Origin: Clostridiales bacterium
GTDB taxonomy: Bacteria > Bacillota > Clostridia > Lachnospirales > CAG-274
NCBI GenBank assembly: GCA_021203425.1
Contig: JAJQBF010000262.1
Coordinates: 1 to 32,000, forward strand
Length of the DNA: 32,000 bases
Direction: 5' to 3'
The notes beneath the pieces were generated by a model that was not told the origin of the DNA, did not search any database, and saw nothing but the letters and a program-made list of their open reading frames with translations. Numbering within the stretch: the stretch's first letter is position 1; the number at the start of each line of letters is the position of its first letter. Shown here one piece after another: positions 3,924 through 24,081 of the stretch. Made by a program: the position numbers and the translations under genes.

Positions 3924-4172
3924 ATGACAGAAAATTATGAACAGAATAAAAAGCAACTGACCCTTGGCAGTCTTTTCTCAGGCTCCGGGGGTTTTGAATT
4001 GGTGGGGGTTCTTGCCGGGATTAAACCTGTTTGGAAATCAGATGTTGAACCCTTCGCTATAGCAGTAACAAATAAACGTTTTCCAGATGTGAAACATTAT
4101 GGAGATGTTTCAACTTTGAAAGGTGGTGAATTGGGGGCTGTCGATATTATTACTTTCGGCTCCCCCTGTTAG
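3924..4172 (+). CDS. C5-cytosine DNA methyltransferase, fragment 1 of 3 (motifs I-IV; stops right after the catalytic Pro-Cys)
   Basis: Motif I LFSGSGGFE and motif IV ITFGSPC are followed immediately by TAG (4170-4172). The expected continuation QDMSIAG is in the +1 frame. Confidence 0.8.
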   Translation: MTENYEQNKKQLTLGSLFSGSGGFELVGVLAGIKPVWKSDVEPFAIAVTNKRFPDVKHYGDVSTLKGGELGAVDIITFGSPC

Positions 4173-6105
4173 CCAAGATATGAGTATTGCCGGAAAAAGA
4201 TCGGGATTGGACGGAGAGCGTTCAGGTCTTTTTTATGAGGCAATCCGTATCATAAAAGAAATGAGGTGTGCAACAAATGGACAATATCCAAGATATGCAG
4301 TCTGGGAGAATGTTTTCGGAGCTTTCAGTTCCAACAAAGGAGAAGATTTCAAAGCAGTCCTCGAAGCGTTCATCCAAATTGCCGAGCCAAAAGCCCCTCC
4401 GGTGCCTATGCCTGAAAAAGGGACCTGGCCCTATGCTGACATTTTACTGGGAGACGGATGGAGCATTGCTTACAGAACTCTTGACAGTCAATGGTGGGGA
4501 GTTCCCCAACGACGTCGTCGAATCTTCCTTGTCGCAGATTTTGGAGGCAGGAGTGCAGGAGAAATATTATTTGTCAGCGAAGGCTTGTCTGGGTATACTC
4601 CGCAGGGCTTCCGCACGTGGAAAGGAACTGCCGGAGATTTTACGCAAGGCACTGGAGCGGCAGGCGGCGGCAGGAGAAGTGAAGGAGAACGAATAGTTTT
4701 AAATGACCAAGGCGGTCAGCGTATGGATGTAACGGAAGATGTCACCTGTACCTTACGTGCTGAAGCTCACCATCCTCCCTGTGTTATTGATGGTGCGGCG
4801 GGGTTTTGCACTGAGCATTCCGCAAAGAGCCGGAGCATTGAATATGAGGAAGAGAAAAGTCCAACGCTCCGAGCCGGAGTTGTTCCGGCTGTACAGATGT
4901 ATGAAAAGCACTCACAAGATACACGATACACAGGACCGTTGGAGGTTGCACCAACAGTAAGTGCTACCTACGGCATGGGCGGAAATAATCAGCCGTTTGT
5001 GACAGAGGCAGAGCAGATTCCGCAGGCTCTTCGTATGCGTCAGGGTAAATCCGGCGGCGGAAAAGGTCCATTAATACAAGGTAACCTTTCGGGTACTCTC
5101 GGCTGCAGCAATGACCAAACTGTATTTGTGCCTGAACCGAAATCTTGTTATTGGGACGGTTCCCAAACTGTAGGAACACTGACCCATAGAAATGCGAGCG
5201 GTTCACAGCGTATGCCGGATAAGGAAAATTTCAATTGTGTATTGGAAAAATCGCATAAACAAAAAGCCTATGGCATAAGTGCTTTTAAGTCAAATGCTAT
5301 GCTTTCGGATAATCCTCACTCCGGCATTTACGAAGCGGAAACAAGCAGAACTCTTAACTGCAATGGCGGATCACCTATAAATCAACAAGGCGGCATTGCC
5401 ATTGTGGAAGAAGAGTCTGTGGCGTTTGCCCAGAACCAACGTAACGAGGTCAGAAATTTAGAAGATAAGACCGGGACTTTACAAGCAGAACCGGGAATGA
5501 AACAGCAGACCTATGTTTTGCAGGGCAATACGATAGGCAGGTCTGATAAGAACGGTTCGTGGGGCTGTGGGGTTAGTGAGGATGTGTGTTATACGCTTAC
5601 CGATGTTGGCCGCCATGCGGTTGTTGCTCCCGATCCCGTTGCGGCTCCCGACCCTGTGTATTCAATGACCACAGGTTCTTATATGAATATTTCTGAGGAG
5701 AAATCACCTACGCTGTTGGAACGTGATTATAAAGACCCGACTGCAGTGGCACCTGTGCCTATGGATACAGGAAAGGAAAACGACCCCAGTTATGGTATAG
5801 ACAGAGCAGCATTCAATCAAGGAAAGAACGCAAAGTTCGGTTTCTCTATTGAAGAGGAATTATCTCCAACACTTGTATCAAAAGGACCGAATGCTGTGTC
5901 TAAAACGGAAACCCATTATACTGTGAGACGATTGACACCTACAGAGTGTGCCAGACTGCAGGGCTTTCCTGACTGGTGGTGCAGCGATTTGGGAAATCCG
6001 AATCCAACGGACGAAGAGCTTAAACTTTGGATGGACGTTTGGGAAACTCACAGGCAGGTAATCTCTCACGCTTCAAAACCGAAAAGCAGGTGCGTAAATG
6101 GTTAG
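4123..6105 (+). CDS. C5-cytosine DNA methyltransferase, fragment 2 of 3 (motifs IV-IX with a very long variable region)
   Basis: True homology starts about nt 4171 (SQDMSIAGKRSGLDGERSGLF). Also present are ENV (AVWENVFGA), motif VIII (PQRRRRIFLVA) and motif IX (RRLTPTECARLQGFPDWW). About 420 aa between VIII and IX carry nine TL-dipeptide modules plus one TV variant. Confidence 0.85.
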   Translation: MVNWGLSILLLSAPPVSQDMSIAGKRSGLDGERSGLFYEAIRIIKEMRCATNGQYPRYAVWENVFGAFSSNKGEDFKAVLEAFIQIAEPKAPPVPMPEKGTWPYADILLGDGWSIAYRTLDSQWWGVPQRRRRIFLVADFGGRSAGEILFVSEGLSGYTPQGFRTWKGTAGDFTQGTGAAGGGRRSEGERIVLNDQGGQRMDVTEDVTCTLRAEAHHPPCVIDGAAGFCTEHSAKSRSIEYEEEKSPTLRAGVVPAVQMYEKHSQDTRYTGPLEVAPTVSATYGMGGNNQPFVTEAEQIPQALRMRQGKSGGGKGPLIQGNLSGTLGCSNDQTVFVPEPKSCYWDGSQTVGTLTHRNASGSQRMPDKENFNCVLEKSHKQKAYGISAFKSNAMLSDNPHSGIYEAETSRTLNCNGGSPINQQGGIAIVEEESVAFAQNQRNEVRNLEDKTGTLQAEPGMKQQTYVLQGNTIGRSDKNGSWGCGVSEDVCYTLTDVGRHAVVAPDPVAAPDPVYSMTTGSYMNISEEKSPTLLERDYKDPTAVAPVPMDTGKENDPSYGIDRAAFNQGKNAKFGFSIEEELSPTLVSKGPNAVSKTETHYTVRRLTPTECARLQGFPDWWCSDLGNPNPTDEELKLWMDVWETHRQVISHASKPKSRCVNG

Positions 6106-6221
6106 CTAATCCCTACTCCGATAGTGCTGTTTACCGTCTTTACGGCAATAGTATCGCTTTACCCTGCGGTTATTTTGTTCTGCGCGGTATCGCCTGGGCG
6201 GCTGAAAAAGAAAAAAAGTAA
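6027..6221 (+). CDS. C5-cytosine DNA methyltransferase, fragment 3 of 3 (motif X)
   Basis: KTEKQVRKWLANPYSDSAVYRLYGNSIALPCGYFVL contains motif X (GNSIALP). It joins fragment 2 if the A4 run at 6075-6078 were A5. Confidence 0.8.
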   Translation: MDGRLGNSQAGNLSRFKTEKQVRKWLANPYSDSAVYRLYGNSIALPCGYFVLRGIAWAAEKEKK

Positions 6222-6451: not shown

Positions 6452-7387
6452 GTGCTTGTAAAGCGGTTGAAAGAGCTGACAGGCTTGCATTCGGTTTATA
6501 CTTTTATGCCGAGGAGCGCATTTGAAATCGGACAATATACTGTTGAAAGGGATGGCAGCCTGACTGTGGAAGAAGCCGAAACGGATACTGCTGTGCTGAA
6601 CACACTTCTTGACGAAGGTTTGATTATCGGTGACTTGCCGGAAGAAACAAATGTGGAAACTACCGAAACTTCCGAGATTGCCGAAAGTGAGACTGCCGAA
6701 GCCGAAAATGCAGACTGCTTAAGCATAAGTTTCCCGGTTTCACAGCACACAGGAAATTCCCTGCGAAATCTTATCCGCTTGCTTTACAGCCGAGGCGATA
6801 TGATTAACAAGGCTGTGGGTTCACACTTCAGAATAGACAAGGGTTTGATTAAGGCGCTTTCCGATGATCGCTGTACCTACAGCCCTGTCAGCCTGAGAAC
6901 AGCCGTTGAAGATTATGAAAATGAAAACGGTACTTCAATGTCAGGTATTAAAATCACTGATGAGGAAGTCACATTGACAGGCTTTCCTCTTACGGAGGAT
7001 TCAAACCTTACCAAAGCCTGTACTGAGCTTGCTGTACTGATGAATAAAATGTCAATCAAGCAGAAAAGGATTCAGGCAAAGGAAATTGACTCCGAAAATG
7101 AGAAATACGCTTTTAGGATTTGGCTTTTGCGTTTGGGTATGAACGGCACAGAATACAAACAGACAAGAAAACTTCTTATGGAGAACTTGGAAGGAAACTG
7201 TGCCTTCCGAACAGAAGAGGAAACCGAGAAATTCAAGGTCAAGGAAAAGCAGAAACGTGACGCATTGAAAGCAACGAAAGCCGCTGAACAGGACAGTGCT
7301 GATGAGGATAACGTCTCTGAACAGGACAGTGCCGATGAGGATAATGTCTCCGAGCAGGACAGTGCCAATCAGGACAATTCTGAATAA
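6452..7387 (+). CDS. conserved mobile-element protein of unknown function with C-terminal acidic tandem repeats
   Basis: Long ORF whose track start is GTG with no RBS. A well-placed RBS (AGGAG, 6402-6406) and ATGATG at 6417 open a 14-codon ORF in another frame. Adding one A to the A6 run (6430-6435) gives MMKFEKNIDDRKVLVKRLKELTG. The gene is therefore probably 6417..7387 with a frameshift. Confidence 0.65.
   Translation: MLVKRLKELTGLHSVYTFMPRSAFEIGQYTVERDGSLTVEEAETDTAVLNTLLDEGLIIGDLPEETNVETTETSEIAESETAEAENADCLSISFPVSQHTGNSLRNLIRLLYSRGDMINKAVGSHFRIDKGLIKALSDDRCTYSPVSLRTAVEDYENENGTSMSGIKITDEEVTLTGFPLTEDSNLTKACTELAVLMNKMSIKQKRIQAKEIDSENEKYAFRIWLLRLGMNGTEYKQTRKLLMENLEGNCAFRTEEETEKFKVKEKQKRDALKATKAAEQDSADEDNVSEQDSADEDNVSEQDSANQDNSE
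7286..7384 (+). repeat. 3 x 33-bp in-frame tandem repeat (EQDSADEDNVS)
   Basis: Units at 7286-7318, 7319-7351 and 7352-7384. The first two are nearly identical and the third is diverged. They encode the C-terminus of the 6452..7387 protein. Confidence 0.9.
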
Positions 7388-7520
7388 TGGGGAGGCCGAA
7401 AAATTTGAGGCCGCTCTTCCATTATAGACATGTTAACTCTGAAATGTGTATTTATCAAGTGATTTTTGCATAGTAATGTGCACAAATTTATGGCAAGCAA
7501 AAGACTGTATCTTTGGTGGA

Positions 7521-7624
7521 TTTATTATCGAAAAATGACTGGATATATCTCCGAATAGATGGTAATATGTGTTTAACCGAAGGGGAACACCCCACGGAAA
7601 TCAAAAAAACGGAGGATTTACAAA
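7521..7624 (+). promoter_or_regulatory. conserved promoter and 5' leader cassette, copy 1
   Basis: A/T-rich TTTATTATCGAAAAA. Putative -35 TGGATA (7540-7545), a 17-nt spacer, -10 TAATAT (7563-7568). Hairpin CCGAAGGGGAACACCCCACGG (7577-7597), A-rich tract, GGAGG (7611-7615), ATG 7625. Confidence 0.6.
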
Positions 7625-7849
7625 ATGAAAAAGAACACATTTACAGAGGACTACAGAACATTCAAAACCTACGAAGCCGAGTACCGCGCAGCCGAGAACG
7701 AGGCAGACAGAGAGGCAGTAAGAAAGAAGGTCAACGAATTTTACGCAGGGATTGACGCAAAGGGCAAGGATTATGAAAGGCTTTACAGCCTTTACACAGA
7801 GGCTCAGGAAAGGGGCAACGAATACATCGACATTCGTGATAACATTTAG
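7625..7849 (+). CDS. cassette 1 small protein (N-terminal part; the reading frame continues past an in-frame TAG to 8071)
   Basis: Strong RBS. TAG at 7847-7849 is followed by 73 more open codons in the same frame (DKDVKALINSFRKYGIEKFTFSSTWSS...), ending at TGA 8069-8071. A terminator follows directly. The second half has no RBS or start of its own. Confidence 0.7.
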   Translation: MKKNTFTEDYRTFKTYEAEYRAAENEADREAVRKKVNEFYAGIDAKGKDYERLYSLYTEAQERGNEYIDIRDNI

Positions 7850-8080
7850 GACAAGGATGTAAAAGCCTTAATTAACAGCTTCCGCAAATACGGAATTGAA
7901 AAATTTACCTTCAGCTCTACTTGGTCAAGCACAGCTGAAACAGCATGGCTTTTCCTTCAGAACGGCTGTACCTTGGAAGGCATGACTGAGCTTCATGGAT
8001 ATGAAAAGATTACTTTAGGAAAAGAAAGAGAATTTGAAACAATTCACGGATACGTTTTCAAAATAAACTGATATAGCGGC

Positions 8081-8102
8081 GAGCCTCTTCGGAGGCTCTT
8101 TT
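8081..8102 (+). terminator. rho-independent terminator of cassette 1
   Basis: GAGCCTC-TTCG-GAGGCTC followed by TTTT, 10 nt after TGA 8069-8071. Confidence 0.75.
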
Positions 8103-8202
8103 CCGTTGAATTAAAACCCCGGCAAATGCTACGGAGAACCGACTCTTTTAAACAGTTGGAGTCGCAGAAAATATAAACAATACAATCAGTAAATGTTTGT
8201 GT

Positions 8203-8310
8203 ATATTATTATCAAAAAATGTCTGGCTATTCTCCGAAAACAGAGGTAATATGTGTTTAACCGAAGGGGAAAAACCCCCACGGAAATCATAAAAAACGGA
8301 GGATACGAAC
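8203..8310 (+). promoter_or_regulatory. conserved promoter and 5' leader cassette, copy 2
   Basis: TGGCTA, 17 nt, TAATAT (8247-8252). Hairpin CCGAAGGGGAAAAACCCCCACGG (8261-8283), GGAGG (8298-8302), ATG 8311. Confidence 0.6.
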
Positions 8311-8556
8311 ATGAAAAGAGCAAACACAAAGAAAACAGAATGGGTAGTCAGAATGCTGGGTTGGAGCGGCAAGTCTTACACAACTGTGGATGAAGAAGGA
8401 ATCAGAACCTACCATCCGGGCACAAAATTCGGTTGGATGGACATTAAGGTTTTTGATAACTTTAGTGAAGCTGACAATTGGCTTTTGAATTTAGTGAGAA
8501 CAAAGGGTGGATTGATTACCGATTTCACAATAAAAAAGCGTGAGGTTATAGCGTAA
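8311..8556 (+). CDS. cassette 2 small protein A (81 aa, unknown function)
   Basis: RBS plus ATG directly after the conserved leader. TAA stop followed by a GC hairpin. Confidence 0.7.
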   Translation: MKRANTKKTEWVVRMLGWSGKSYTTVDEEGIRTYHPGTKFGWMDIKVFDNFSEADNWLLNLVRTKGGLITDFTIKKREVIA

Positions 8557-8562
8557 GGAGTT

Positions 8563-8587
8563 GGCAGCAGCCCCTTCGGGGGCTGCC
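8563..8587 (+). terminator. intercistronic GC-rich UUCG hairpin (attenuator or processing site rather than a full terminator)
   Basis: GGCAGCAGCCCC-TTCG-GGGGCTGCC with no U tract. It is immediately followed by the RBS of the next gene. Confidence 0.3.
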
Positions 8588-8608
8588 ATAGGAAAGGAGA
8601 GATACACA

Positions 8609-8818
8609 ATGACAGAATACGAAAAATTGGTCGCCGCCGAAAGGTACGCACACACTGTAGAAATTATCGAACCTACAACAGGCAAGATTGGTGTGGCAAA
8701 CACAACGGAAAAGGGTGTGGCTGTATTTTACGGAGCCGATGACGGAAGCGATGACAAGGTTATCACAGCAGAAGAATTCAGCAAGGATTTCCGAATTACG
8801 GCGATTATTGATAACTAA
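8609..8818 (+). CDS. cassette 2 small protein B (69 aa, unknown function)
   Basis: RBS AAAGGAGAG precedes ATG 8609. The track ORF 8561.. begins inside the hairpin and is unlikely to be the real start. Confidence 0.65.
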   Translation: MTEYEKLVAAERYAHTVEIIEPTTGKIGVANTTEKGVAVFYGADDGSDDKVITAEEFSKDFRITAIIDN

Positions 8819-8832
8819 CAACAGGCAGAGGA

Positions 8833-8855
8833 GAGTCGGAGAACCGACTCTTTTT
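8833..8855 (+). terminator. rho-independent terminator of cassette 2
   Basis: GAGTCGG-AGAA-CCGACTC followed by TTTTT. Confidence 0.75.
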
Positions 8856-8906
8856 AACTGCCGGAATGGTAGAAAATATACACAATACAATCAGTAAATA
8901 TTTGTG

Positions 8907-9011
8907 TATTTTATTATCAAAAAATGTCTGGCTATTCTCCGAAAACAGAGGTAATATACACTTAACCGAAGGGGAACACCCCACGGAAATAAAACACGGA
9001 GGATTTACAAA
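8907..9011 (+). promoter_or_regulatory. conserved promoter and 5' leader cassette, copy 3
   Basis: TGGCTA, 17 nt, TAATAT (8952-8957). Hairpin CCGAAGGGGAACACCCCACGG (8966-8986), GGAGG, ATG 9012. Near-identical to copy 2 over about 175 bp. Confidence 0.6.
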
Positions 9012-9233
9012 ATGGAAGATTACAGAGAATACGAGGAAACAACAGCAGAGCAGATTGAGGAAGCCTTAATGGGGATTCTCAGATACAGAGAGAGTGCAGA
9101 GGACACAGCCCTTGCAAATTTGGAGGACACAGCGAGCTTTCAGGAAGGTGGAGTTATGACCTACAACAGAGGGTTGGTGCTGAGAATGGCAGACGGAACG
9201 GAGTTCCAGATAAGCATTGTTCAGAGTAGGTAA
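9012..9233 (+). CDS. cassette 3 small acidic protein (73 aa, unknown function)
   Basis: RBS plus ATG after the conserved leader. TAA stop followed by a hairpin at 9242-9267. Confidence 0.7.
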   Translation: MEDYREYEETTAEQIEEALMGILRYRESAEDTALANLEDTASFQEGGVMTYNRGLVLRMADGTEFQISIVQSR

Positions 9234-9241
9234 AAGGAAAA

Positions 9242-9272
9242 GGGAGGGATTCTTCGGATTCCCTCCTGCTTT
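9242..9272 (+). terminator. terminator-like hairpin of cassette 3
   Basis: GGGAGGGATTC-TTCG-GATTCCCTCC (one internal mismatch) followed by TGCTTTC. Confidence 0.55.
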
Positions 9273-9360
9273 CAGATATCTGTGAATAAGCCTGAGTGTG
9301 TATAACTGACAAATCACACAGCCTTATTTCCTCTCATTTTCGTGTAGTATATAGCACATA

Positions 9361-9443
9361 ATTAATTGGATAAAATGTGTTTTCAGAGGTAATATGTGTA
9401 TAAAGAAAAGGGAACACCCCTAAAAAACAAGGAGGACACAAAA
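9361..9443 (+). promoter_or_regulatory. conserved promoter and 5' leader cassette, copy 4 (shorter variant)
   Basis: TGGATA (9368-9373), 17 nt, TAATAT (9391-9396). Hairpin GGGAACACCC (9411-9420), TAAAAAACAAGGAGG, ATG 9444. Confidence 0.55.
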
Positions 9444-9734
9444 ATGACAAGAACAGAAAGAAACGAGTACAACTACTTCAGAAAGCAGATTAATGACTTA
9501 GGAGCAAGTAACACCTGCATGATGAGCATTCGCACAAACGCAGGGAGCGAATACAAAAAAGCCCTGCATGAGCTTTTCACAGAATGCGGTTTCCACTCCT
9601 GCGAAGTAAAAACCGACCCCATTCGCTTCGATGATAATGAAAGAATTTTCTACATAAAGGGCATTGACCACGAACATTGGACAAACCTTTACACCGAAGA
9701 GGAAAAAGAGCTTTTTGCAAGGAAGCTGAACTGA
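9444..9734 (+). CDS. cassette 4 small protein (96 aa, unknown function)
   Basis: ATG 9444 follows AAGGAGG with good spacing. The track start at 9396 lies inside the leader and is unlikely to be real. Confidence 0.7.
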   Translation: MTRTERNEYNYFRKQINDLGASNTCMMSIRTNAGSEYKKALHELFTECGFHSCEVKTDPIRFDDNERIFYIKGIDHEHWTNLYTEEEKELFARKLN

Positions 9735-9844
9735 ACAGCCGAGACGAAACAAGCCGAACACAGAACCCCGAAATGGGCTGTGTCTCGTATAGGGTGAATT
9801 TGTTATTGTGTATAAGTGACTGGTTTTGATGATCATTTTTGTGG

Positions 9845-9940
9845 GATTTATTATTGAAAAAAACTGGATATATAGCGGCTTCAGAGGTAATATTTGTATA
9901 ACCAAAGGGGAAAACCCCTAAAATTAAGGAGGCATACAAC
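9845..9940 (+). promoter_or_regulatory. conserved promoter and 5' leader cassette, copy 5
   Basis: TGGATA (9865-9870), 17 nt, TAATAT (9888-9893). Hairpin GGGGAAAACCCC (9907-9918), TAAAATTAAGGAGG, ATG 9941. Confidence 0.55.
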
Positions 9941-10252
9941 ATGAGTAAAATAATAATTAAAGAGGCAAACATCAAGGACACAACAAAAATTAACGATTAC
10001 AGATTGAGAAACACAACAACAATTGAACAGCTGACCCTTGACAGCAACCCAGGCTACGCCGCAATTCTTGTTTACGGAAGGTACATACTTTTTACGGACT
10101 TGAATTGGAAGGGCAAATTCATAGCTGCCATTTATGAGTTTTCTACAGACAAAAATGATATGGATGACCCGATAAGGCTGAAGGAAACCGCTAAAGAGGT
10201 ATTTGATGACAGCGGACACGCAGCAGAGTGGTGTTTTAACAAGATTAAATAA
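9941..10252 (+). CDS. cassette 5 small protein (103 aa, unknown function)
   Basis: RBS plus ATG after the conserved leader. TAA stop is followed by two UUCG hairpins. Confidence 0.7.
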   Translation: MSKIIIKEANIKDTTKINDYRLRNTTTIEQLTLDSNPGYAAILVYGRYILFTDLNWKGKFIAAIYEFSTDKNDMDDPIRLKETAKEVFDDSGHAAEWCFNKIK

Positions 10253-10296
10253 AGCTTTGCCTCTTCGGGGGCTTTGCACGTTATATGGAATTTTCT

Positions 10297-10324
10297 AAGA
10301 CTTCTTCGGAGGTCTTTTATTTTG
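10297..10324 (+). terminator. rho-independent terminator closing the cassette array
   Basis: AAGACTTC-TTCG-GAGGTCTT followed by TTATTTT. Confidence 0.7.
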
Positions 10325-10350
10325 CCCATTTTACAAAGGAGGAGAATCCA

Positions 10351-10818
10351 ATGCAAGACAACATCATAAAAAGCATTTCATACAGTCAGGAAGAAATCCT
10401 GCAATGGACTCTTAAGCTGTATGTGCCGGAGGGCTGCTTTGAAGTAGACCCTACATTTTCAAAAGGTAACTTTTATAAAAGCGGAGCTGTGCCAAGACCT
10501 AAATATTGCTTTGATATTATTCCGCAGGCAGAAGGAGTTACACAGACTGTCTGCCGTTCACTGCCTTTTACCGAAAAGTCAATCGGCAGTATGATAATTG
10601 ACCTGCCTTTTCTTGCTACTACTGGGGTTTCACTAAAAGGGAACGATGGAAACATTGTAAACCGCAGATTTGGTGTGTGTAAAAACGAAACGGAGCTTAC
10701 ACAGCTTTATGAAGATACGCTTGCTGAGGCTTGGCGAGTTCTTAAGCCGGGCCGGTGTTTTGGTTATGAAATGTCAAGACAAGGTTTCAAGCGGAAAGCA
10801 ATATATAATGCACTGTGA
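10351..10818 (+). CDS. putative DNA methyltransferase, N-terminal fragment (frameshifted)
   Basis: AGGAGG RBS and ATG 10351. A DPPY-like motif (IIDLPFLA) is present. Homology-like sequence runs to ...RVLKPG, then continues in another frame (GVLVMKCQDKVSSGKQ...). The junction is at GGGCCGG, 10750-10755. Confidence 0.5.
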   Translation: MQDNIIKSISYSQEEILQWTLKLYVPEGCFEVDPTFSKGNFYKSGAVPRPKYCFDIIPQAEGVTQTVCRSLPFTEKSIGSMIIDLPFLATTGVSLKGNDGNIVNRRFGVCKNETELTQLYEDTLAEAWRVLKPGRCFGYEMSRQGFKRKAIYNAL

Positions 10819-11023
10819 TATTTATGAAATGGCAAAAGAAATAGGTTTTTACCCAATTGACCTATTTATTTTGCTTGCTAAAAACAGGCTCATAGCCGAT
10901 TGGCAGCGGAACCAAAAACATGCTCGAAAATACCACAGTTATTTTTGGGTGTTTCAAAAACCTGTGAAAGGAGGAAAACGAGATGGCAACAAGAGGAAGA
11001 AAACCAACTCCCACAGCAATTAA
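10670..11023 (+). CDS. putative DNA methyltransferase, C-terminal fragment
   Basis: From about 10754: GVLVMKCQDKVSSGKQYIMHCDIYEMAKEIGFYPIDLFILLAKNRLI...QKHARKYHSYFWVFQKP. This resembles the C-terminal part of small phage DNA methylases. It overlaps the terS start by 41 nt. Confidence 0.5.
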   Translation: MVCVKTKRSLHSFMKIRLLRLGEFLSRAGVLVMKCQDKVSSGKQYIMHCDIYEMAKEIGFYPIDLFILLAKNRLIADWQRNQKHARKYHSYFWVFQKPVKGGKRDGNKRKKTNSHSN

Positions 11024-11458: not shown

Positions 11459-12520
11459 GTGGAGACAAGACCAAAGGACTATCCAAAACTGACTGACTAT
11501 ACACCGTCAAAGTTTATGCTTCCCGACTCCCACTATGATAAAAAGAAGGTGGATAAAGCTGTAAATTTTATAGAACAGCTAAAACACACCAAAGGAAAGT
11601 GGGCAGGGAAACGTTTCTGGTTATTGCCTTGGCAAGAAACAATAGTTAGGGATATTTTCGGGACCACTAAAAGTGATGGTAAGCGACAATTCAGGACAGC
11701 ATTTGTCAAAATATGCAAGGAAATGGGCAAAAGTGAGCTTGCTGCAGCTGTTGCACTGTATATGCTGTATGCAGATAACGAACCATCTGCAGAAGTTTAC
11801 GGTGCTGCATCAGACAGACAGCAGGCATCAATTGTATTTGATGTTGCCAAACGAATGACAGAACTGACACCGGCACTGTTGAAGCGCAGCAAGATTATAG
11901 CAGCACAGAAACGTCTGGTAAATTATACTAACGGAGGCTTTTATCAGGTTTTATCAGCAGATGTTGCAAATAAGCATGGGCTGAATATATCCTGTGTCGT
12001 TATAGATGAATGTCACTCGTTTCCGAATAGAAATTTATATGAGGTGTTGTCGCAGGATGCCAGTGATGCAAGAGAACAGCCGCTGACCTTTGTAATCACC
12101 ACAGCAGGCAATGATAAACATTACATATGCTATGGACTCCATACAAAGGCAAAAGATATTCTTGAAGGCAGAAAGACAGGCCCGGCTTTTTATCCTGTGG
12201 TATATGGCCTTGAAGAAGATGATGACTGGGGTGATGAGAATAATTGGTTTAAGGTTTGTCCATCTCTCGGCTATACTGTAGCCCTTGACCGTATGCGTGA
12301 TGTTTATCGGAATGCCATAGAGAATCCGGCAGAGGAAAACGCCTTCAAACAATTGAGGCTCAATATTTGGGTGAACAGTGCTGTTAGGTGGATATCGGAG
12401 CACGTTTATGCAAGGGGAAACAAGCCTATAGATGTTGAAGCTCTTAAAGGTCGTGATTGTTATGGCGGACTGGATTTGGGATATTACAGCACTTGTTTTG
12501 ATTTTTCCGCCAAAGGATGA
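11459..12520 (+). CDS. terL: terminase large subunit, N-terminal (ATPase) fragment
   Basis: GGAGGGG RBS and GTG 11459. Terminase_1-like motifs are present (KRFWLLPWQETIVRDIFG; VVIDECH). The frame is lost after ...CYGGLDL at 12478-12480. Confidence 0.85.
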   Translation: METRPKDYPKLTDYTPSKFMLPDSHYDKKKVDKAVNFIEQLKHTKGKWAGKRFWLLPWQETIVRDIFGTTKSDGKRQFRTAFVKICKEMGKSELAAAVALYMLYADNEPSAEVYGAASDRQQASIVFDVAKRMTELTPALLKRSKIIAAQKRLVNYTNGGFYQVLSADVANKHGLNISCVVIDECHSFPNRNLYEVLSQDASDAREQPLTFVITTAGNDKHYICYGLHTKAKDILEGRKTGPAFYPVVYGLEEDDDWGDENNWFKVCPSLGYTVALDRMRDVYRNAIENPAEENAFKQLRLNIWVNSAVRWISEHVYARGNKPIDVEALKGRDCYGGLDLGYYSTCFDFSAKG

Positions 12521-13070
12521 TGAGGACAGTTATATATTGCTGCCTTTTTTCTGGCTTCCCGAAGATACGCTTGAACTTCGTGTACGCAGGGCTCATGTGA
12601 ATTATGATTTGTGGCGAAGACAAGGTTTGTTTTATGTAACTCCGGGAGATGTAGTTGACTACAATTACATTCGTAAGAAAATTAATGAACTGGGTGAAAT
12701 TTACCACATACGTGAGATTGCCCATGACCGTTGGAATGCAAGCCAGCTTGTCATTGAACTGGGCTTTGATGCTTTCACAATGGTTCCGATTGGTCAGGGA
12801 ATGGCTTCAATGGCGGCTCCTACAAAGGAATTTTATAAGCTGCTTTGTGAAGGTAAAATCAATCACGGAGGCAATCCGGTATTGGAGTGGATGGCGGGAA
12901 ATGTTGTTGTAGAAACAGATGCCGCCGGAAATGTTAAGCCCATCAAAGAAAAAAGTACAGAAAAGATAGATGGCATAGTTGCTGCTATTATGGCTCTTGA
13001 CCGTTGTATCAGAAATGAAGGAGTAATTCAAGGTAGTATTTATGACGAGAGGGAACTCTTCGTTTTGTAA
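12432..13070 (+). CDS. terL: terminase large subunit, C-terminal (nuclease) fragment
   Basis: From about 12480: DITALVLIFPPKDDEDSYILLPFFWLPED...IDGIVAAIMAL, the typical terL nuclease domain. It joins the N fragment with a 1-nt change in the G3 run. Confidence 0.85.
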   Translation: MLKLLKVVIVMADWIWDITALVLIFPPKDDEDSYILLPFFWLPEDTLELRVRRAHVNYDLWRRQGLFYVTPGDVVDYNYIRKKINELGEIYHIREIAHDRWNASQLVIELGFDAFTMVPIGQGMASMAAPTKEFYKLLCEGKINHGGNPVLEWMAGNVVVETDAAGNVKPIKEKSTEKIDGIVAAIMALDRCIRNEGVIQGSIYDERELFVL

Positions 13071-14504: not shown

Positions 14505-15983
14505 ATGGGATTTATACAATGGTTGGGATTTAATGGCAAGCCGAGAGACGCACCTGTGGAAGAGGCTCCTATCGAGGAAGTGCCTGTAGTAGATGCTCCT
14601 GTGGGAGATACGCCTGTGAAAGACACACCTGTGGGAGTTTCACCGGAACTGCCGGATATACAGGACAACGTCCGAGATAGCGGACAAACTTTTATGTTCG
14701 GCAGAGCATACAGTGGTGAAAGAGTAGATGAGAAATCATCTTTACAGATAGCCACTGTGTATGCCTGTGTTCGTTTGCTTGCGGAAACTGTAGCGAGCCT
14801 GTCGCTGCACCTTTACAAGTACAAAGGAGACAACGGTAAGGAAAAAGCTATGGAACACCCGTTATACAAAATTCTTTACAGACAGCCGAACCCGGAAATG
14901 ACCTCTTTCAGCTTCAGAGAGTGTATGATGCCCCATATGCTTTTGTGGGGCAATTGTTATGCACAGATAGTCAGGGATAACAGAAATGAAATTCTCGGTT
15001 TATATCCGCTTATTCCTCAGAATGTGGAAATAGACAGAGACGAAAGCGGAGAGATTTTCTATATATACCACACCTATGAAGATGACAAAGCCGGAGAAAC
15101 TGGTATGGACTATTATTTCAAGCGTGAAGATATTCTCCATATACCCGGCTTGGGATTCAACGGTTTAGTCGGTTTCAGTCCGATTGGTATGATGAAAAAT
15201 TCCCTCGGCTCTGCAATCGCTGTGGAAAAATACGGTTCGGCATTCTTCCGAAACGGAGCACAGCCAAGCGGTGTGCTGGAGCATCCCGGTGTATTGAAAA
15301 ATCCCGATAAGGTAAGGGAATCATGGAACAGCACCTACGGCGGTTCTTCAAATGCTCATCGTGTGGCTGTACTTGAAGAGGGAATGTCCTACAAAGCAAT
15401 TTCACTTCCGCCGGAAGATTCACAATTCCTTGAGACACGCAAGTTCAGTGTTTGCCGTATTTTCAGAGTTCCTCCGCACCTTGTACAGAGCTTGGAACAC
15501 GCTACCTTTTCCAACATTGAACATCAGGGCATTGACTTTGTTCAGCATTCCATAACCCCATGGATTATCCGCTGGGAACAGGCAATAATGAAAGACCTTT
15601 TGCTCGAAGAGGAGCAAGATGTTTACTTCCCGAAATTTAATGTGGACGGATTACTCCGAGGTGACTATAGAAGCAGAATGCAAGGATATGCTATCGGCTT
15701 TGCAAATGGATTTATGAGTCCCAATGAGATAAGAGCCCTTGAGGGATTTAATCCCATATCGGCTGAAGACGGTGGTGACGATTTCTACCTCAACGGCAGC
15801 TATACAAAACTCAAAGATGCAAGCTCTGTGTATGGGGTAAATACTGAGGGTACACCTCCGAAAGAGGATGAACCGGAAGAGGAAAAGGAAAAAGAAAAAC
15901 CTGAAGAAACTGAGGAAACCGAAAGTGACAGTGATAATCAGCCGAGTGAGAACAGGCGAAAAGAAAGGAGAAAAGTTCTATGA
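14505..15983 (+). CDS. portal protein, HK97 family
   Basis: AAAGGAG RBS. The conserved portal core is present (SSLQIATVYACVRLLAETVASLSLHLY...; FRVPPHL...). It has an unusual N-terminal (D/E)xPVx pentapeptide repeat and an acidic C-terminus. Confidence 0.85.
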   Translation: MGFIQWLGFNGKPRDAPVEEAPIEEVPVVDAPVGDTPVKDTPVGVSPELPDIQDNVRDSGQTFMFGRAYSGERVDEKSSLQIATVYACVRLLAETVASLSLHLYKYKGDNGKEKAMEHPLYKILYRQPNPEMTSFSFRECMMPHMLLWGNCYAQIVRDNRNEILGLYPLIPQNVEIDRDESGEIFYIYHTYEDDKAGETGMDYYFKREDILHIPGLGFNGLVGFSPIGMMKNSLGSAIAVEKYGSAFFRNGAQPSGVLEHPGVLKNPDKVRESWNSTYGGSSNAHRVAVLEEGMSYKAISLPPEDSQFLETRKFSVCRIFRVPPHLVQSLEHATFSNIEHQGIDFVQHSITPWIIRWEQAIMKDLLLEEEQDVYFPKFNVDGLLRGDYRSRMQGYAIGFANGFMSPNEIRALEGFNPISAEDGGDDFYLNGSYTKLKDASSVYGVNTEGTPPKEDEPEEEKEKEKPEETEETESDSDNQPSENRRKERRKVL

Positions 15984-16347
15984 AAAAATTTTGGAACTGG
16001 GTCACAGATGACGCAGGTGAAAGAACCCTGCGGCTTGAAGGATCCATTGATTCAGATGACATCTGGGGTGATTCCGTAACCCCTAAAGGAAACGGAGAAA
16101 CCCGACAAGCAGGGCAAAAATAAGCCGGACGAAGATGATGACGATGAAGACGAAGATGAAGATAAGAAAAAGGGCGTACACCTTTATTCTGCACGTCTTA
16201 TGAATCAGGTTATTTTAAATCATCTCGGCGTAACTGTTCCTACTGTGGCGAACAGTATACAGACCGTTTCATCAACCGGAAAACCGTTACAGCCTATCAT
16301 AGGTATGGACGGTAAAACGAACGATGGCAGTTGCCATACCAGATTTT
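15980..16347 (+). pseudogene. ClpP/S49-type prohead protease remnant (catalytic core deleted)
   Basis: ATG 15980 overlaps the portal stop. MKKFWNWVTDDAGERTLRLEGSIDSDDIWGDSVTPK is the typical N-terminus of phage ClpP-like head maturation proteases. The frame then stops at 16121-16123. An acidic C-terminal-like tail (EDDDDEDEDEDKKKGVHLYSARLMNQV...) continues in another frame to 16347. Only about 440 bp separate portal and capsid genes, which is too short for an intact protease. Confidence 0.6.
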
Positions 16348-16416
16348 AGAAAAGCAGCTGGAGTTTTTAAGATGACCCCGGCTATTTTTATACACAAAAT
16401 ATTTTTACGGAGGTAA

Positions 16417-22938: not shown

Positions 22939-23580
22939 AACGGTGTTAAATCCACTATATATACAGCCTTAAGCGGCATAAAAAGCACTGTTTCAACGGC
23001 TGTCAGCGGCGTGAAAAGTACGGTTTCCACAGCTTGGAGTGGAATAAAGAGTACAACTTCTACACAGTGGAAAGGCGTTCAATCAACCTTAAGCAGCACT
23101 TGGGACAGTATAAAATCAACTGTGACTGATACCACCAAATCTGTGCAAAGTACAATTTTCACCTGTTGGTCTGCGATTAAGAGTACGAATGTTTCTGACT
23201 GGAACAGCATAAAATCAACGCTTTCTACCTGTTGGAGCAGTATAAAATCCACTATAAGTACGGCGACAAGCGGTGTGAAGAGTACCATTTCCACAGCTTG
23301 GAGTGGGATAAAAAGTACCACAAGTTCCACTTGGGATAGTATTAAATCTACTATGAGCAGCACTTGGTCAAGTATAAAATCCACAATATCTTCAACAACA
23401 AGTTCCTTAAAAAGTACGATTTCCTCTGTGTGGTCATCGGTAAAGTCAACCACAAGCAGCTCTTGGAGCAGTATTAAGTCAACAATTTCTTCAACACTGT
23501 CTTCTATGAAATCTGCTGTAAGTTCCGGGCTTTCAAACATTAAGAGCAGTATGAGTTCTACTTTTAGCTCTCTGGTATCG
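22939..23580 (+). repeat. 33-nt (11-aa) periodic repeat region inside the tape measure gene
   Basis: About 19 consecutive 11-residue units are of the form (W/L/V)-x-(G/S)-(I/V)-K-S-T-x-S-x-x. Confidence 0.8.
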
Positions 23581-24081
23581 TCAGCCTACACTTGGGGTAG
23601 GGACATCTGTTCACAGCTTGCCTCCGGTATATCATCTGCGGCGAGCAGTGTAATAAACAAAGCCAAAAATCTGGCTCAGTCTGTGTCTGATATTATAGGG
23701 TTCTCTGTTCCCAAAACAGGACCTCTTTCAGATGCCGATGAGTATATGCCTGATTTTATGGAGCTTATGGCAAAGGGCATTCAGGGCAATATGGGAGATG
23801 TCTTGGACAAAGTAAAAACTGTGGCTGGCTCGGTTAAGGATATGATGACTGAGGGCTTTGTTATGCCGGAGATGTCATCACTTAAAGTACCTGAACTTGC
23901 TTTTGCCGGAGCCGGTTCTACGAACACAACCACAACAAATAATAATCAGAAAACCACTAATCTCGGCGGAGTAAACATTTATGTTTACGGTTCAAACAGC
24001 CAAAGCAATGATGAACTTGCTAAGATGTTGGCTGATAAGTTAAACGATATGTTAGATGAAGATAATGCTGTATTTAAATAG
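23011..24081 (+). CDS. tape measure protein, fragment 3
   Basis: Same frame as fragment 2 and open from 22939; the track start is GTG. It carries 11-residue repeats (W.SIKST.SST) and then a C-terminal domain. Confidence 0.85.
   Translation: MKSTVSTAWSGIKSTTSTQWKGVQSTLSSTWDSIKSTVTDTTKSVQSTIFTCWSAIKSTNVSDWNSIKSTLSTCWSSIKSTISTATSGVKSTISTAWSGIKSTTSSTWDSIKSTMSSTWSSIKSTISSTTSSLKSTISSVWSSVKSTTSSSWSSIKSTISSTLSSMKSAVSSGLSNIKSSMSSTFSSLVSSAYTWGRDICSQLASGISSAASSVINKAKNLAQSVSDIIGFSVPKTGPLSDADEYMPDFMELMAKGIQGNMGDVLDKVKTVAGSVKDMMTEGFVMPEMSSLKVPELAFAGAGSTNTTTTNNNQKTTNLGGVNIYVYGSNSQSNDELAKMLADKLNDMLDEDNAVFK

Follow-up and report, generated by a model that had tools for sequence, protein, structure and literature searches.

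In a 32,000-nucleotide (nt) stretch of contig JAJQBF010000262.1 from a Clostridiales bacterium (assembly GCA_021203425.1; hereafter the window), we found five plus-strand copies of one unit at 7505-9943, each ahead of an unrelated small open reading frame (ORF), in the part of a phage genome that precedes the terminase gene terS. Judged by its conservation in related phage loci, the unit is a real, non-random and evolutionarily maintained regulatory module. It is probably a lineage-specific module of terminator, sigma-A-type promoter and 5' untranslated region (5'-UTR) that would provide autonomous expression of each small-gene cassette and modular shuffling of the cassettes.

Anatomy and recurrence of the unit

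Each window copy consists, in order, of A/T-rich upstream boxes, T(T/G)G(C/A)TA, a 17-nt spacer, TAATAT, a 5' hairpin, an A-rich linker, the Shine-Dalgarno (SD) sequence GGAGG and an ATG 7-9 nt beyond it. The copies are:

Unit 1, 7505-7627, plus strand: boxes 7509-7535; -35 TGGATA 7540-7545; -10 TAATAT 7563-7568; predicted +1 A 7575; leader hairpin CCG-AA-GGGG-AACA-CCCC-A-CGG 7577-7597; SD GGAGG 7611-7615; ATG 7625 (nhmmer E = 5e-24; covariance model 85 bits).
Unit 2, 8189-8313, plus strand: -35 TGGCTA 8224-8229; -10 8247-8252; predicted +1 A 8259; leader hairpin 8261-8283 (GGGG-AAAAA-CCCC within CCG/CGG); SD 8298-8302; ATG 8311.
Unit 3, 8894-9014, plus strand: -35 TGGCTA 8929-8934; -10 8952-8957; predicted +1 A 8964; leader hairpin 8966-8986; SD 8998-9002; ATG 9012.
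Unit 4, 9327-9446, plus strand: -35 TGGATA 9367-9372; -10 9390-9395; predicted +1 A 9402; short leader hairpin GGG-AACA-CCC(C) 9410-9420, without outer stem; SD AGGAGG 9430-9435; ATG 9444.
Unit 5, 9828-9943, plus strand: -35 TGGATA 9865-9870; -10 9888-9893; predicted +1 A 9900; leader hairpin (A)GGGG-AAAA-CCCC(U) 9906-9919; SD GGAGG 9928-9932; ATG 9941.
Sixth copy, 7494-7414, minus strand: promoter only, TTGATA-N17-TAACAT (nhmmer family profile, model positions 8-88, E = 5e-7).

The pattern TGGMTA-N17-TAATAT is identical at five places, with zero mismatches and invariant spacing, and GGTAATAT-N4-WTAAMSRAARGGGAA, which joins the -10 to the 5' half of the hairpin, has five matches in the window (7561, 8245, 8950, 9388 and 9886), all on the plus strand, versus 0.00 expected in shuffles. 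Mean column identity in the five-unit alignment is 78% over approximately 110 nt; the A/T-rich upstream segment TTATTATCAAAAAA is present in units 1-3 and 5, and units 2 and 3 share 89% identity over 146 nt. A first-pass annotation, made from the letters of the window, had described a unit in five copies with the layout of a promoter and 5' leader. Both patterns match exactly those five sites, and the sequence has the predicted anatomy. All of its start codons are correct, as are its -10 positions at 7563, 8247, 8952 and 9888; the -10 of copy 4 starts at 9390 and not at 9391. It also noted a TGTGTAT heptamer ahead of every -10, but this is not a positionally conserved element. TGTGTAT occurs 22 times across the window versus 3.9 expected, and only in copies 2 and 3 does it fall within an upstream box conserved across the family (TTTGTG); that of copy 1 is part of the spacer of the minus-strand promoter copy, and those of copies 4 and 5 are located further upstream, as TGTGTATAASTGAC (2 copies). 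With a window-wide excess and positional homology limited to units 2 and 3, we rejected the heptamer as a shared operator.

The minus-strand copy is back-to-back with unit 1, has neither SD nor cargo, and points antisense into the 3' end of ORF 6452-7387. Its divergent counterpart in six relatives (L010, L012, L042 and L091-093) precedes a gene for an 84-amino-acid (aa) acidic protein, and the window copy looks like a relic. A separate 14-nt motif, TGTGTATAA(C/G)TGAC, is particular to units 4 and 5, where it stands 80-95 nt before the -10, at 9297-9310 and 9807-9820 (2 copies versus 0.26 expected at up to 2 mismatches; 2 of 100 shuffles equal this).

We collected relatives as 80 IMG/VR loci and 80 named-genome loci anchored on terS at 69-88% identity; hosts in the genome set are Lachnospiraceae, Oscillospiraceae, Acetatifactor, Eisenbergiella, Oribacterium, Dorea, Ruminiclostridium and others. 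More than 80 copies were recovered with an nhmmer profile of the five window units. Once rebuilt from 68 distinct copies, the profile gave 215 matches in the 80 IMG/VR loci (208 on the terS strand) and 233 in the 80 genome loci (223 on the plus strand), for a total of approximately 440 unit copies in 140 of the 160 loci. Up to 13 copies are present within 10 kb upstream of terS and almost none downstream, and minus-strand copies mostly belong to divergent pairs located at one array edge, like the pair in the window. In complete genomes, units occur only between the amidoligase-type genes and terS and at one further site, by the integrase operon. All three of the complete Candidatus (Ca.) Heliusvirales genomes examined carry a unit-type promoter after the endolysin gene and a terminator, ahead of the recombinase/integrase operon (L171, 2955-3034, minus strand; L172, 3215-3268; L173, 39591-39649), and there are no unit copies in the replication module of these three genomes.

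A scan of IMG/VR for the exact -10-plus-hairpin consensus of the window returned only 7 single chance matches in unrelated contexts. Exact patterns fail because the motif is too variable; the profile search on terS-anchored loci worked. In blastn against INPHARED phages the array itself was unmatched, the sole match being 120 nt inside cassette 4 to amidoligase-region DNA. Logan short-read contigs of the element are only 1.2-3.6 kb long (L008, L009, L175 and L176); L008 begins inside unit 3, and L175 and L176 apparently end near units. The repeats seem to fragment assemblies, and such arrays may be hidden in metagenomes.

We counted position-specific conservation over 354 distinct units. Upstream boxes are conserved at about -66 to -59 (ATnTTTGT), -53 to -50 (TTAT) and -42/-41 (AA). 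The -35 region reads C-T-(T/G)-G-(C/A)-T-A-T at -36 to -29, with T-35 in 100% and G-33 in 99% of units, and 25% of units have TGG in place of TTG. The -10 region reads AG-n-(G/A)G-T-(A/G)-A-T-A-T (A 97%, final T 89%), with a variant TG-n-TATATA that reads as an extended -10. An A is present exactly 7 nt after the -10 in 88% of units, with a pyrimidine before it in 95%, and is the predicted start site. Further downstream the leader is conserved as (C)C-n-n-AAGGG-n-AAA and later as A-n-GGAGG followed by ATG; SD and start codon are at the expected distance in 207 of 210 units. A strict terminator (hairpin and T-run) is found within 190 nt upstream of 41% of units versus 17% of random segments.

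In orthologous cassettes, the unit is 78% conserved versus 89% for the coding sequence, with a floor near 57% set by the boxes. Since over its full length the unit falls behind the coding sequence, conservation sits in motifs, as for regulatory sites, and does not reflect recent spread of one sequence; the idea that units are more conserved than adjacent coding DNA was rejected on the same comparison. Unit identity is 63% within a locus versus 57% between loci, a modest homogenization. Given so weak an effect, and with hairpin-bearing and hairpin-less leaders coexisting in one genome, we also rejected a genome-specific leader type, which would have implied a phage-specific partner.

The leader hairpin

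All five window leaders fold as the first-pass annotation had described, with minimum free energies of -10.3, -10.8, -9.7, -5.0 and -8.0 kcal/mol for units 1 to 5. Units 1-3 form a two-helix hairpin in which CCG/CGG encloses GGGG/CCCC; the hairpins of units 4 and 5 are marginal (z-scores -1.7 and -0.9) and consist of the inner 3-5 bp only. Among 224 distinct leaders, the mean minimum free energy is -5.2 kcal/mol with a mean z-score of -2.2 versus shuffles, and 60% fold at -4 kcal/mol or better. Where folding reaches -2 kcal/mol or better, pairing mostly begins 9-11 nt downstream of the -10, i.e., at +2 to +4 of the predicted transcript.

Between phages the outer helix changes from CCG/CGG to CGG/CCG with pairing kept, and the inner helix appears as GGGG/CCCC, GGGC/GCCC, GCGG/CCGC, GGC/GCC or GGGA/UCCC, again with pairing kept. 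When we ran the covariance-model search proposed in the first-pass annotation, a model built from the five window leaders alone matched 14 + 35 further leaders. Over 32 distinct rows, 88.6% of cells pair and both sides change in 5 of 7 pairs (27 cells), in an alignment that was fitted to the structure of the model and holds sequences related to one another; 0 of 500 shuffles reach that covariation, and slid-partner controls pair at 31-61%. Since the stem covaries, the opposing scenario named in that annotation, recent local duplication without a functional RNA, is ruled out.

Approximately 35-40% of leaders are without a stable hairpin. These read ACCGAAAGGGAAAAC... or carry a mini-hairpin that pairs the same G-run with an upstream C-run (CCC-GAAG-GGG, GCC-GAAA-GGC). 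The hairpin is selected but optional, because the same cargo family occurs with and without it (43% of Nmad4 and 88% of DUF7698 leaders carry the hairpin). Loops vary (AACA, AAAA, AAAAA, GAAAG, AGACA and others), and the invariant purine tract GAAAGGG can pair with the 16S anti-SD at -8.9 kcal/mol versus -9.5 kcal/mol for the true SD. The suggestion in the first-pass annotation that the hairpin is a binding or translational-control site fares less well: with so many leaders lacking it, an optional tuning element would fit better than an obligatory operator.

The hairpin was rejected as an intrinsic terminator or attenuator, being followed by A-rich sequence without a U-tract. Long-range pairing of the 5' CCG with a CGG near the SD was rejected as SD sequestration; it would form 3 bp only, the association is not compensatory, and folding does not predict it. 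Rfam gave no match in the window at the gathering score, and with permissive filters over 7400-10400 the sole match up to E = 1 was a chance eukaryotic long non-coding RNA (E = 0.42).

The most likely role of the leader hairpin, which we propose tentatively, is that of a 5'-terminal mRNA stabilizer, because it lies 1-3 nt from the predicted 5' end and is followed by an A-rich linker and a strong SD, like stabilizers of Gram-positive bacteria. In the aprE leader and STAB-SD, a 5' structure or SD-like tract near the 5' end prolongs mRNA half-life. The unit resembles them in having a hairpin or SD-like tract near the (predicted) 5' end and then a strong ribosome-binding site (RBS), and differs in its shorter hairpins, of 7 bp in two helices or of 3-5 bp. 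Both elements are covered as Bacillus mRNA stabilizers by the works listed as references 106 and 109 in PMC3997798.

Cassette contents, cassette ends and exchange

The genes and cassette-end signals of the window array are as follows:

7625-8072, plus strand: cassette 1 cargo, a DUF7698 gene with an in-frame TAG at 7847-7849 (family G2, 49 members).
8081-8102, plus strand: intrinsic terminator of cassette 1, GAGCCTC-TTCG-GAGGCTC + TTTT (scan).
8311-8556, plus strand: cassette 2, ORF 2a, 81 aa (family G11).
About 8562-8588, plus strand: internal hairpin of cassette 2, -18.4 kcal/mol by folding, without T-run.
8609-8818, plus strand: cassette 2, ORF 2b, 69 aa, with its own SD.
8828-8855, plus strand: intrinsic terminator of cassette 2, GAGTCGG-AGAA-CCGACTC + TTTTT, -16.6 kcal/mol by folding (z = -4.3).
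9012-9233, plus strand: cassette 3 cargo, 73 aa (family G16).
9242-9275, plus strand: terminator-like hairpin of cassette 3, GGGAGGGAUUC-UUCG-GAUUCCCUCC, with weak T-run, -16.4 kcal/mol by folding.
9444-9734, plus strand: cassette 4 cargo, 96 aa (family G6, 14 members).
9736-9796, plus strand: end hairpin of cassette 4 with ...CTGTGTCTCGTAT tail, without U-tract, -17.5 kcal/mol by folding.
9941-10252, plus strand: cassette 5 cargo, Nmad4-domain protein, 103 aa (PF18756, E = 4e-14).
10254-10320, plus strand: two hairpins closing the array, the second of which (10297-10316 and T-run) is a strong intrinsic terminator.

The first ORFs of the five cassettes belong to five different cargo families, in the order G2-G11-G16-G6-G1, in agreement with the first-pass annotation, which had found its six proteins of 69-147 aa to be dissimilar. 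The length range needs one correction: the 147-aa protein is the cassette 1 product, which is broken by the in-frame TAG. The two halves of this gene together match DUF7698 (second half, profile positions 49-107, E = 4e-11), and relatives carry Trp (TGG) at the TAG position (G2 representative). The truncated 74-aa ORF is also found in the independent short-read assemblies SRR15221335 and SRR15221326, so the TAG is not an assembly error of one data set. Stop-codon recoding is unsupported, as the stop arises from one TGG-to-TAG substitution of a conserved Trp codon, and the prophage also has frameshifts (terL etc.). Pfam and PHROG searches gave no match for the cassette 3 cargo, and a Pfam search gave none for that of cassette 4. 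The Nmad4 family of cassette 5 (69 members) is the second commonest cargo and usually the final cassette ahead of terS.

The terminators that the first-pass annotation had placed at 8081 and 10297 were called by the scan, and those at 8833 (with T-run) and 9243 (weak T-run) were recovered by folding; the scan did not list the cassette 2 terminator, apparently because G-T pairs were counted and the T-run was absorbed into the stem. For cassette 4, where that annotation saw no convincing terminator, there is the -17.5 kcal/mol hairpin without U-tract. This type of end, a hairpin and CTCGTTAT, is also found at cassette ends in relatives (sequences upstream of terS). Many cassette ends, at 9736-9796 and 10254-10285 in the window and in relatives, have a hairpin and then a CTGTG(T/C)CTCGT(T/A)AT-like tail instead of a U-tract; such ends may represent a weaker signal of a second kind, or a site of processing. 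UUCG tetraloops are present in almost all cassette-end and intra-cassette hairpins (8081-8098, 8565-8589, 9243-9267, 10262-10275 and 10297-10316).

The first ORFs after 414 units sorted into 58 families (median length 94 aa in a first, smaller census), so that the unit does recur with other cargo, which the first-pass annotation had proposed to check in relatives. Amidoligase_2 is the commonest Pfam cargo; the others are Nmad4, DUF7698, GGACT, DUF3846, DUF4313, DUF4314, DUF7678, DUF6900, zinc ribbons and one Sigma70_r2 protein. PADLOC defense models gave no match for the window cassette peptides and three common cargo families, and a role of the cargo in anti-defense or host takeover is a guess by association.

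Cassette order in relatives is largely a colinear presence/absence mosaic (e.g., G0-G2-G5-G1, G0-G2-G6-G1 and G2-G6-G5-G1). Three close pairs differ by exactly one cassette with junctions in units, where the overlap is 20 nt at the SD segment (L040/L044), 152 nt (L102/L101) or 108 nt (L091/L092), within a range of 17-155 nt for the junction overlaps; these single-cassette indels bear out the cassette-exchange hotspot suggested in the first-pass annotation. We then took a census of indels inside arrays over all pairs at 85% identity or more. Among 57 distinct array indels, both breakpoints fall in a unit in 22 and one breakpoint in 16. Units make up 21% of the span, so that 4.4% would be expected to have both breakpoints in units (binomial p ~1e-15, for events that are not fully independent and with BLAST breakpoint placement ambiguous within repeats).

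All window genes are on the plus strand, in the order SLT transglycosylase, HNH-type protein, ParB-methyltransferase, LysM protein, C5-methyltransferase, a 311-aa protein whose match to the 'amidoligase enzyme' PHROG falls outside the catalytic domain, the array, a further methyltransferase, terS (Terminase_4), terL, portal, capsid and tail genes. The window terS, the sole protein formally compared, is 74-78% identical to that of at least 15 GenBank phages from human feces classified as Caudoviricetes, Ca. Heliusvirales, with Blautia, Faecalimonas, Dorea, Agathobacter, Coprococcus and Acutalibacteraceae as hosts, and the layout HNH - methyltransferase - amidoligase-type genes - terS - terL - portal is common to the window and these records. 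This lineage is widespread and 97.9% temperate (PMC11283538). The words promoter and intergenic are absent from the main text of that paper, and we found no description of the unit in the Heliusvirales literature that we searched. The terminator at 10297-10316 lies approximately 30 nt ahead of the methyltransferase/terS operon. In 60 of 65 relatives an intrinsic terminator is located 25-60 nt before terS, which leaves no promoter room ahead of the terS SD, so late transcription must read through (or antiterminate).

The window prophage shows signs of decay. Its terL (11459-13070) is split by a frameshift near 12481, with identical split ORFs in Logan contig L174, only residues 1-35 and 211-284 of the L091 homologue are left in the prohead-protease region (15980-16372), and the C5-methyltransferase (4123-6221) and the small methyltransferase (10351-11023) each occupy two overlapping frames. 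Despite these lesions, four cassettes of the five remain intact. Two repeat tracts lie in coding sequence: the product of ORF 6452-7387 carries a C-terminal acidic EQDSADEDNVS repeat, encoded by three tandem 33-nt repeats at 7277-7375, and five copies of a 27-nt repeat at 23097-23486, at spacings that are multiples of 33 nt, lie in ORF 23011-24081 of the tail region and suggest a repetitive protein domain.

Competing readings and known systems

In the reading that we favor, each unit would be a self-contained expression module used across a temperate siphophage lineage of Clostridia (Ca. Heliusvirales-like), comprising in order the preceding terminator, upstream boxes (with an UP-like A-tract in the window), promoter, start A, leader and RBS. 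The predicted promoter is sigma-A-type, C-T(T/G)G(C/A)TA-T, a 17-nt spacer and (G)G-TAATAT or TG-n-TATATA, and the 5'-UTR of approximately 45 nt would open with a small G+C hairpin (1-3 unpaired 5' nt) or with the purine-rich, SD-like GAAAGGG. Host RNA polymerase would start at every unit, and each accessory gene, like the integrase operon, would be transcribed alone up to the cassette terminator. The 5' hairpin or SD-like element would most likely shield the mRNA 5' end from 5'-dependent decay and tune yield, and the A-rich unstructured linker and strong SD would give efficient translation. Because the same ~110 nt are repeated every 0.4-1 kb, unit copies would recombine within and between phages, so that whole cassettes would be deleted, inserted and re-sorted, and this re-sorting would make the stretch between the DNA-modification genes and terS a hyperplastic accessory region.

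Several observations weigh against this reading. A generic sigma-70 scan called none of the five units because their hexamers match 8 of 12 consensus positions only; as its promoter and terminator thresholds miss the units and one terminator, we used direct reading and folding instead. The hairpin is absent from more than a third of leaders and marginal in two of the five window units, the covariation alignment was fitted to its own model, the indel events are not wholly independent and have breakpoints that BLAST places ambiguously within repeats, and a strict terminator precedes just 41% of units. Conservation of the -35 flanks (C at -36, T at -29) and of the upstream boxes goes beyond the needs of sigma-A and could mean dependence on a phage factor. 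Promoter activity, start site, sigma factor and timing are predictions from the sequence.

There is a modest chance that the units form a middle or late regulon that depends on an activator or sigma-like factor, with a DUF1492/Sigma70_r4 protein as candidate. Such a phage protein would recognize the C-TTGCTA-T element and the upstream boxes, and the cassettes would be switched on together at one stage of the lytic cycle, not through host sigma-A alone. The excess conservation around -35 and from -66 to -41 and the TGG found in a quarter of units would fit such a factor, as would the restriction of units to the HNH-methyltransferase-array-terS block and the integrase operon, with a DUF1492/Sigma70_r4 gene co-directional and upstream of that block in PV036413.1. 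However, the spacing and both hexamers are sigma-A-like, whereas activator-dependent promoters usually have no good -35; a promoter shared with the integrase operon would be odd for a late regulon; and the regulator gene is outside the window, its role that of a candidate only. In L171 a gene for this regulator lies upstream of HNH at 32988-33413; the window has none.

We give a similarly modest weight to the cassettes being moron-like and constitutive, i.e., active in the prophage and of benefit to the lysogen, with terminators that keep transcription out of the late genes. Morons of lambdoid phages are independent promoter-gene-terminator units between conserved modules, each normally with its own unrelated promoter; here the cassettes are also built as promoter, gene and terminator, but one conserved promoter and leader is common to all cassettes and to the whole lineage. 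The strong terminator before terS, the four cassettes kept intact amid inactivated terL, prohead protease and methyltransferase genes, and the promoter shared with the integrase operon point in this direction, serine-integrase genes often being expressed constitutively. Yet the cargo has no known defense or conversion function, cassette 1 is itself broken by a nonsense codon, and lytic-cycle genes typically occupy such a position, between the replication/modification and packaging modules.

Somewhat less probable is a repressor-controlled 'establishment' regulon, in which a phage repressor bound at the upstream boxes would keep strong sigma-A promoters off in the lysogen, and anti-defense or takeover proteins and integrase would be made in a transient burst at entry or induction. 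Its model is EGeRS2 of plasmid p576 and the pLS20-family clade II, where several operons of highly variable genes, mostly of unknown function but with methyltransferases and anti-restriction genes among them, each follow a conserved regulatory sequence made of a strong sigma-A promoter and a conserved element immediately ahead of the -35; co-ordinated, transient expression was proposed for them (Val-Calvo et al., 2021, PMC8708921). The unit is alike in architecture and cargo logic, and the integrase operon shares its promoter. The array would also lie at the genome end that a pac/cos phage would inject first. Amidoligase_2, DUF3846, DUF4313/4314, Nmad4 and adjacent methyltransferases are typical of conflict or establishment regions. 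On the other side, the dual heptamer operator of EGeRS2, TTATCCCnnTTATCCC, is absent at up to 3 mismatches in or near any unit; no ribbon-helix-helix or helix-turn-helix repressor or other DNA-binding domain was recognized among the window cassette proteins, where a small ribbon-helix-helix protein is easily missed; and neither dyad nor direct-repeat symmetry is clear in the upstream boxes. Anti-defense function is itself a guess, and the PADLOC result shows only that these are not known defense proteins. EGeRS2 differs further in belonging to a conjugative plasmid and not a phage and in having no reported 5' hairpin or recombination role.

It is unlikely that the leader hairpin is a nut- or put-like antitermination site or a translational-regulator site, from which a modified polymerase would read through into the late operon. 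In lambda nut, boxA and boxB serve N antitermination, and the covarying leader stem does recall boxB, being small and G+C-rich, with A-rich loops, and placed early in the transcript, upstream of terminators that late transcription, without promoter room before terS, needs to pass. However, the hairpin is missing from many orthologues, including the terS-nearest unit (Nmad4), the loops are not conserved (versus GNRA-like), no plus-strand boxA-like match is present in any leader, Rfam has no match, and no candidate N-like protein was identified. A gene for a Com-like zinc-ribbon 'translational regulator' (56 aa) in one relative (L173, 1395-1565) is a candidate trans-acting gene that would suit this idea. 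In a version that we also consider improbable, the leader (covarying hairpin and AAGGG) would be the RNA site of a phage trans-acting antiterminator or translational regulator, and the array a timed regulon and gate to the late genes: without the factor each unit would express its own cassette only, and with it transcription would read through the cassette terminators and the one next to terS.

Recent local duplication, or a selfish miniature mobile element, without regulatory role is very improbable: the 89% identity of units 2 and 3 does suggest recent duplication or conversion and within-locus identity is slightly above between-locus identity, but there are approximately 440 copies in phages whose terS differ by up to 30%, with strict orientation, a fixed distance to SD and ATG, motif-wise and not whole-length conservation and compensatory stem changes, and neither terminal inverted repeats nor target duplications were seen.

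Among described systems, the PeSLs (promoter-early stem-loops) of T4-like myoviruses come closest; they combine a sigma-70 early promoter with A/T-rich upstream sequence, a stem-loop of a G-run and a C-run, and SD/ATG (Arbiol et al., 2010, PMC2839356; Comeau et al., 2014, PMC4122927). Dozens of copies stand in hyperplastic regions before small ORFans; recombination between copies explains indels and replacements, and promoter activity and mini-circles have been shown (PMC2839356, PMC4122927). The unit is PeSL-like in most respects and fails one defining feature. It shares sigma-70-type hexamers with canonical spacing (here predicted from sequence, 8/12 consensus), an A/T-rich upstream region, the SD and ATG of a small ORFan, concentration in a hyperplastic region and indels between close relatives that are bounded by copies (here 22/57 versus 4.4%). 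In contrast, the stem-loop of PeSLs is a terminator or attenuator at or before the start site, whereas here it is downstream of the predicted +1, without U-tract, covarying and optional, and there are separate UUCG-loop terminators. The phages also differ, virulent Gram-negative myoviruses versus temperate siphophages of Gram-positive Clostridia; they belong to different phage orders, and we claim no sequence relationship.

The host-takeover module of SPO1 and the T4 early promoters offer a looser likeness, as small-gene arrays with near-identical strong promoters and RBSs before each gene, and both phages are virulent, unlike these. Pope et al. (2011) reportedly described SAS/ESAS in Cluster K mycobacteriophages, a 13-bp RBS-containing motif before unrelated genes, some with inverted repeats. 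The unit is similar as a conserved, RBS-including motif repeated ahead of a subset of unrelated genes; SAS is a translation-start motif without promoter, versus approximately 110 nt with -35 and -10 here. Integron gene cassettes are promoterless, have attC ends and lie next to the intI tyrosine recombinase and a single Pc promoter. We rejected integron cassettes, as every cassette here has its own promoter-like unit and ordinary terminators at its ends, with no integrase beside the array.

Prophages of the Ca. Heliusvirales type rank with the most widespread phages of Clostridia in human and animal guts, and the appeal of the unit comes mainly from the prevalence of this lineage and from directly testable predictions. 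The conserved terminator directly before terS raises the question of how the late genes are reached; if the leader were read by a trans-acting factor, the array would double as an entry gate to late expression in a highly prevalent human gut phage order. For gut Clostridia, which are poorly tractable, the unit would be a compact and apparently portable promoter/5'-UTR part. It would also be a handle for finding the fast-turnover accessory genes of the lineage, which are candidates for anti-defense, host takeover and lysogenic conversion. Recombination at repeated regulatory modules would be a concrete gene-shuffling mechanism for temperate phages of Gram-positive bacteria and would extend the PeSL principle beyond T4-like phages.

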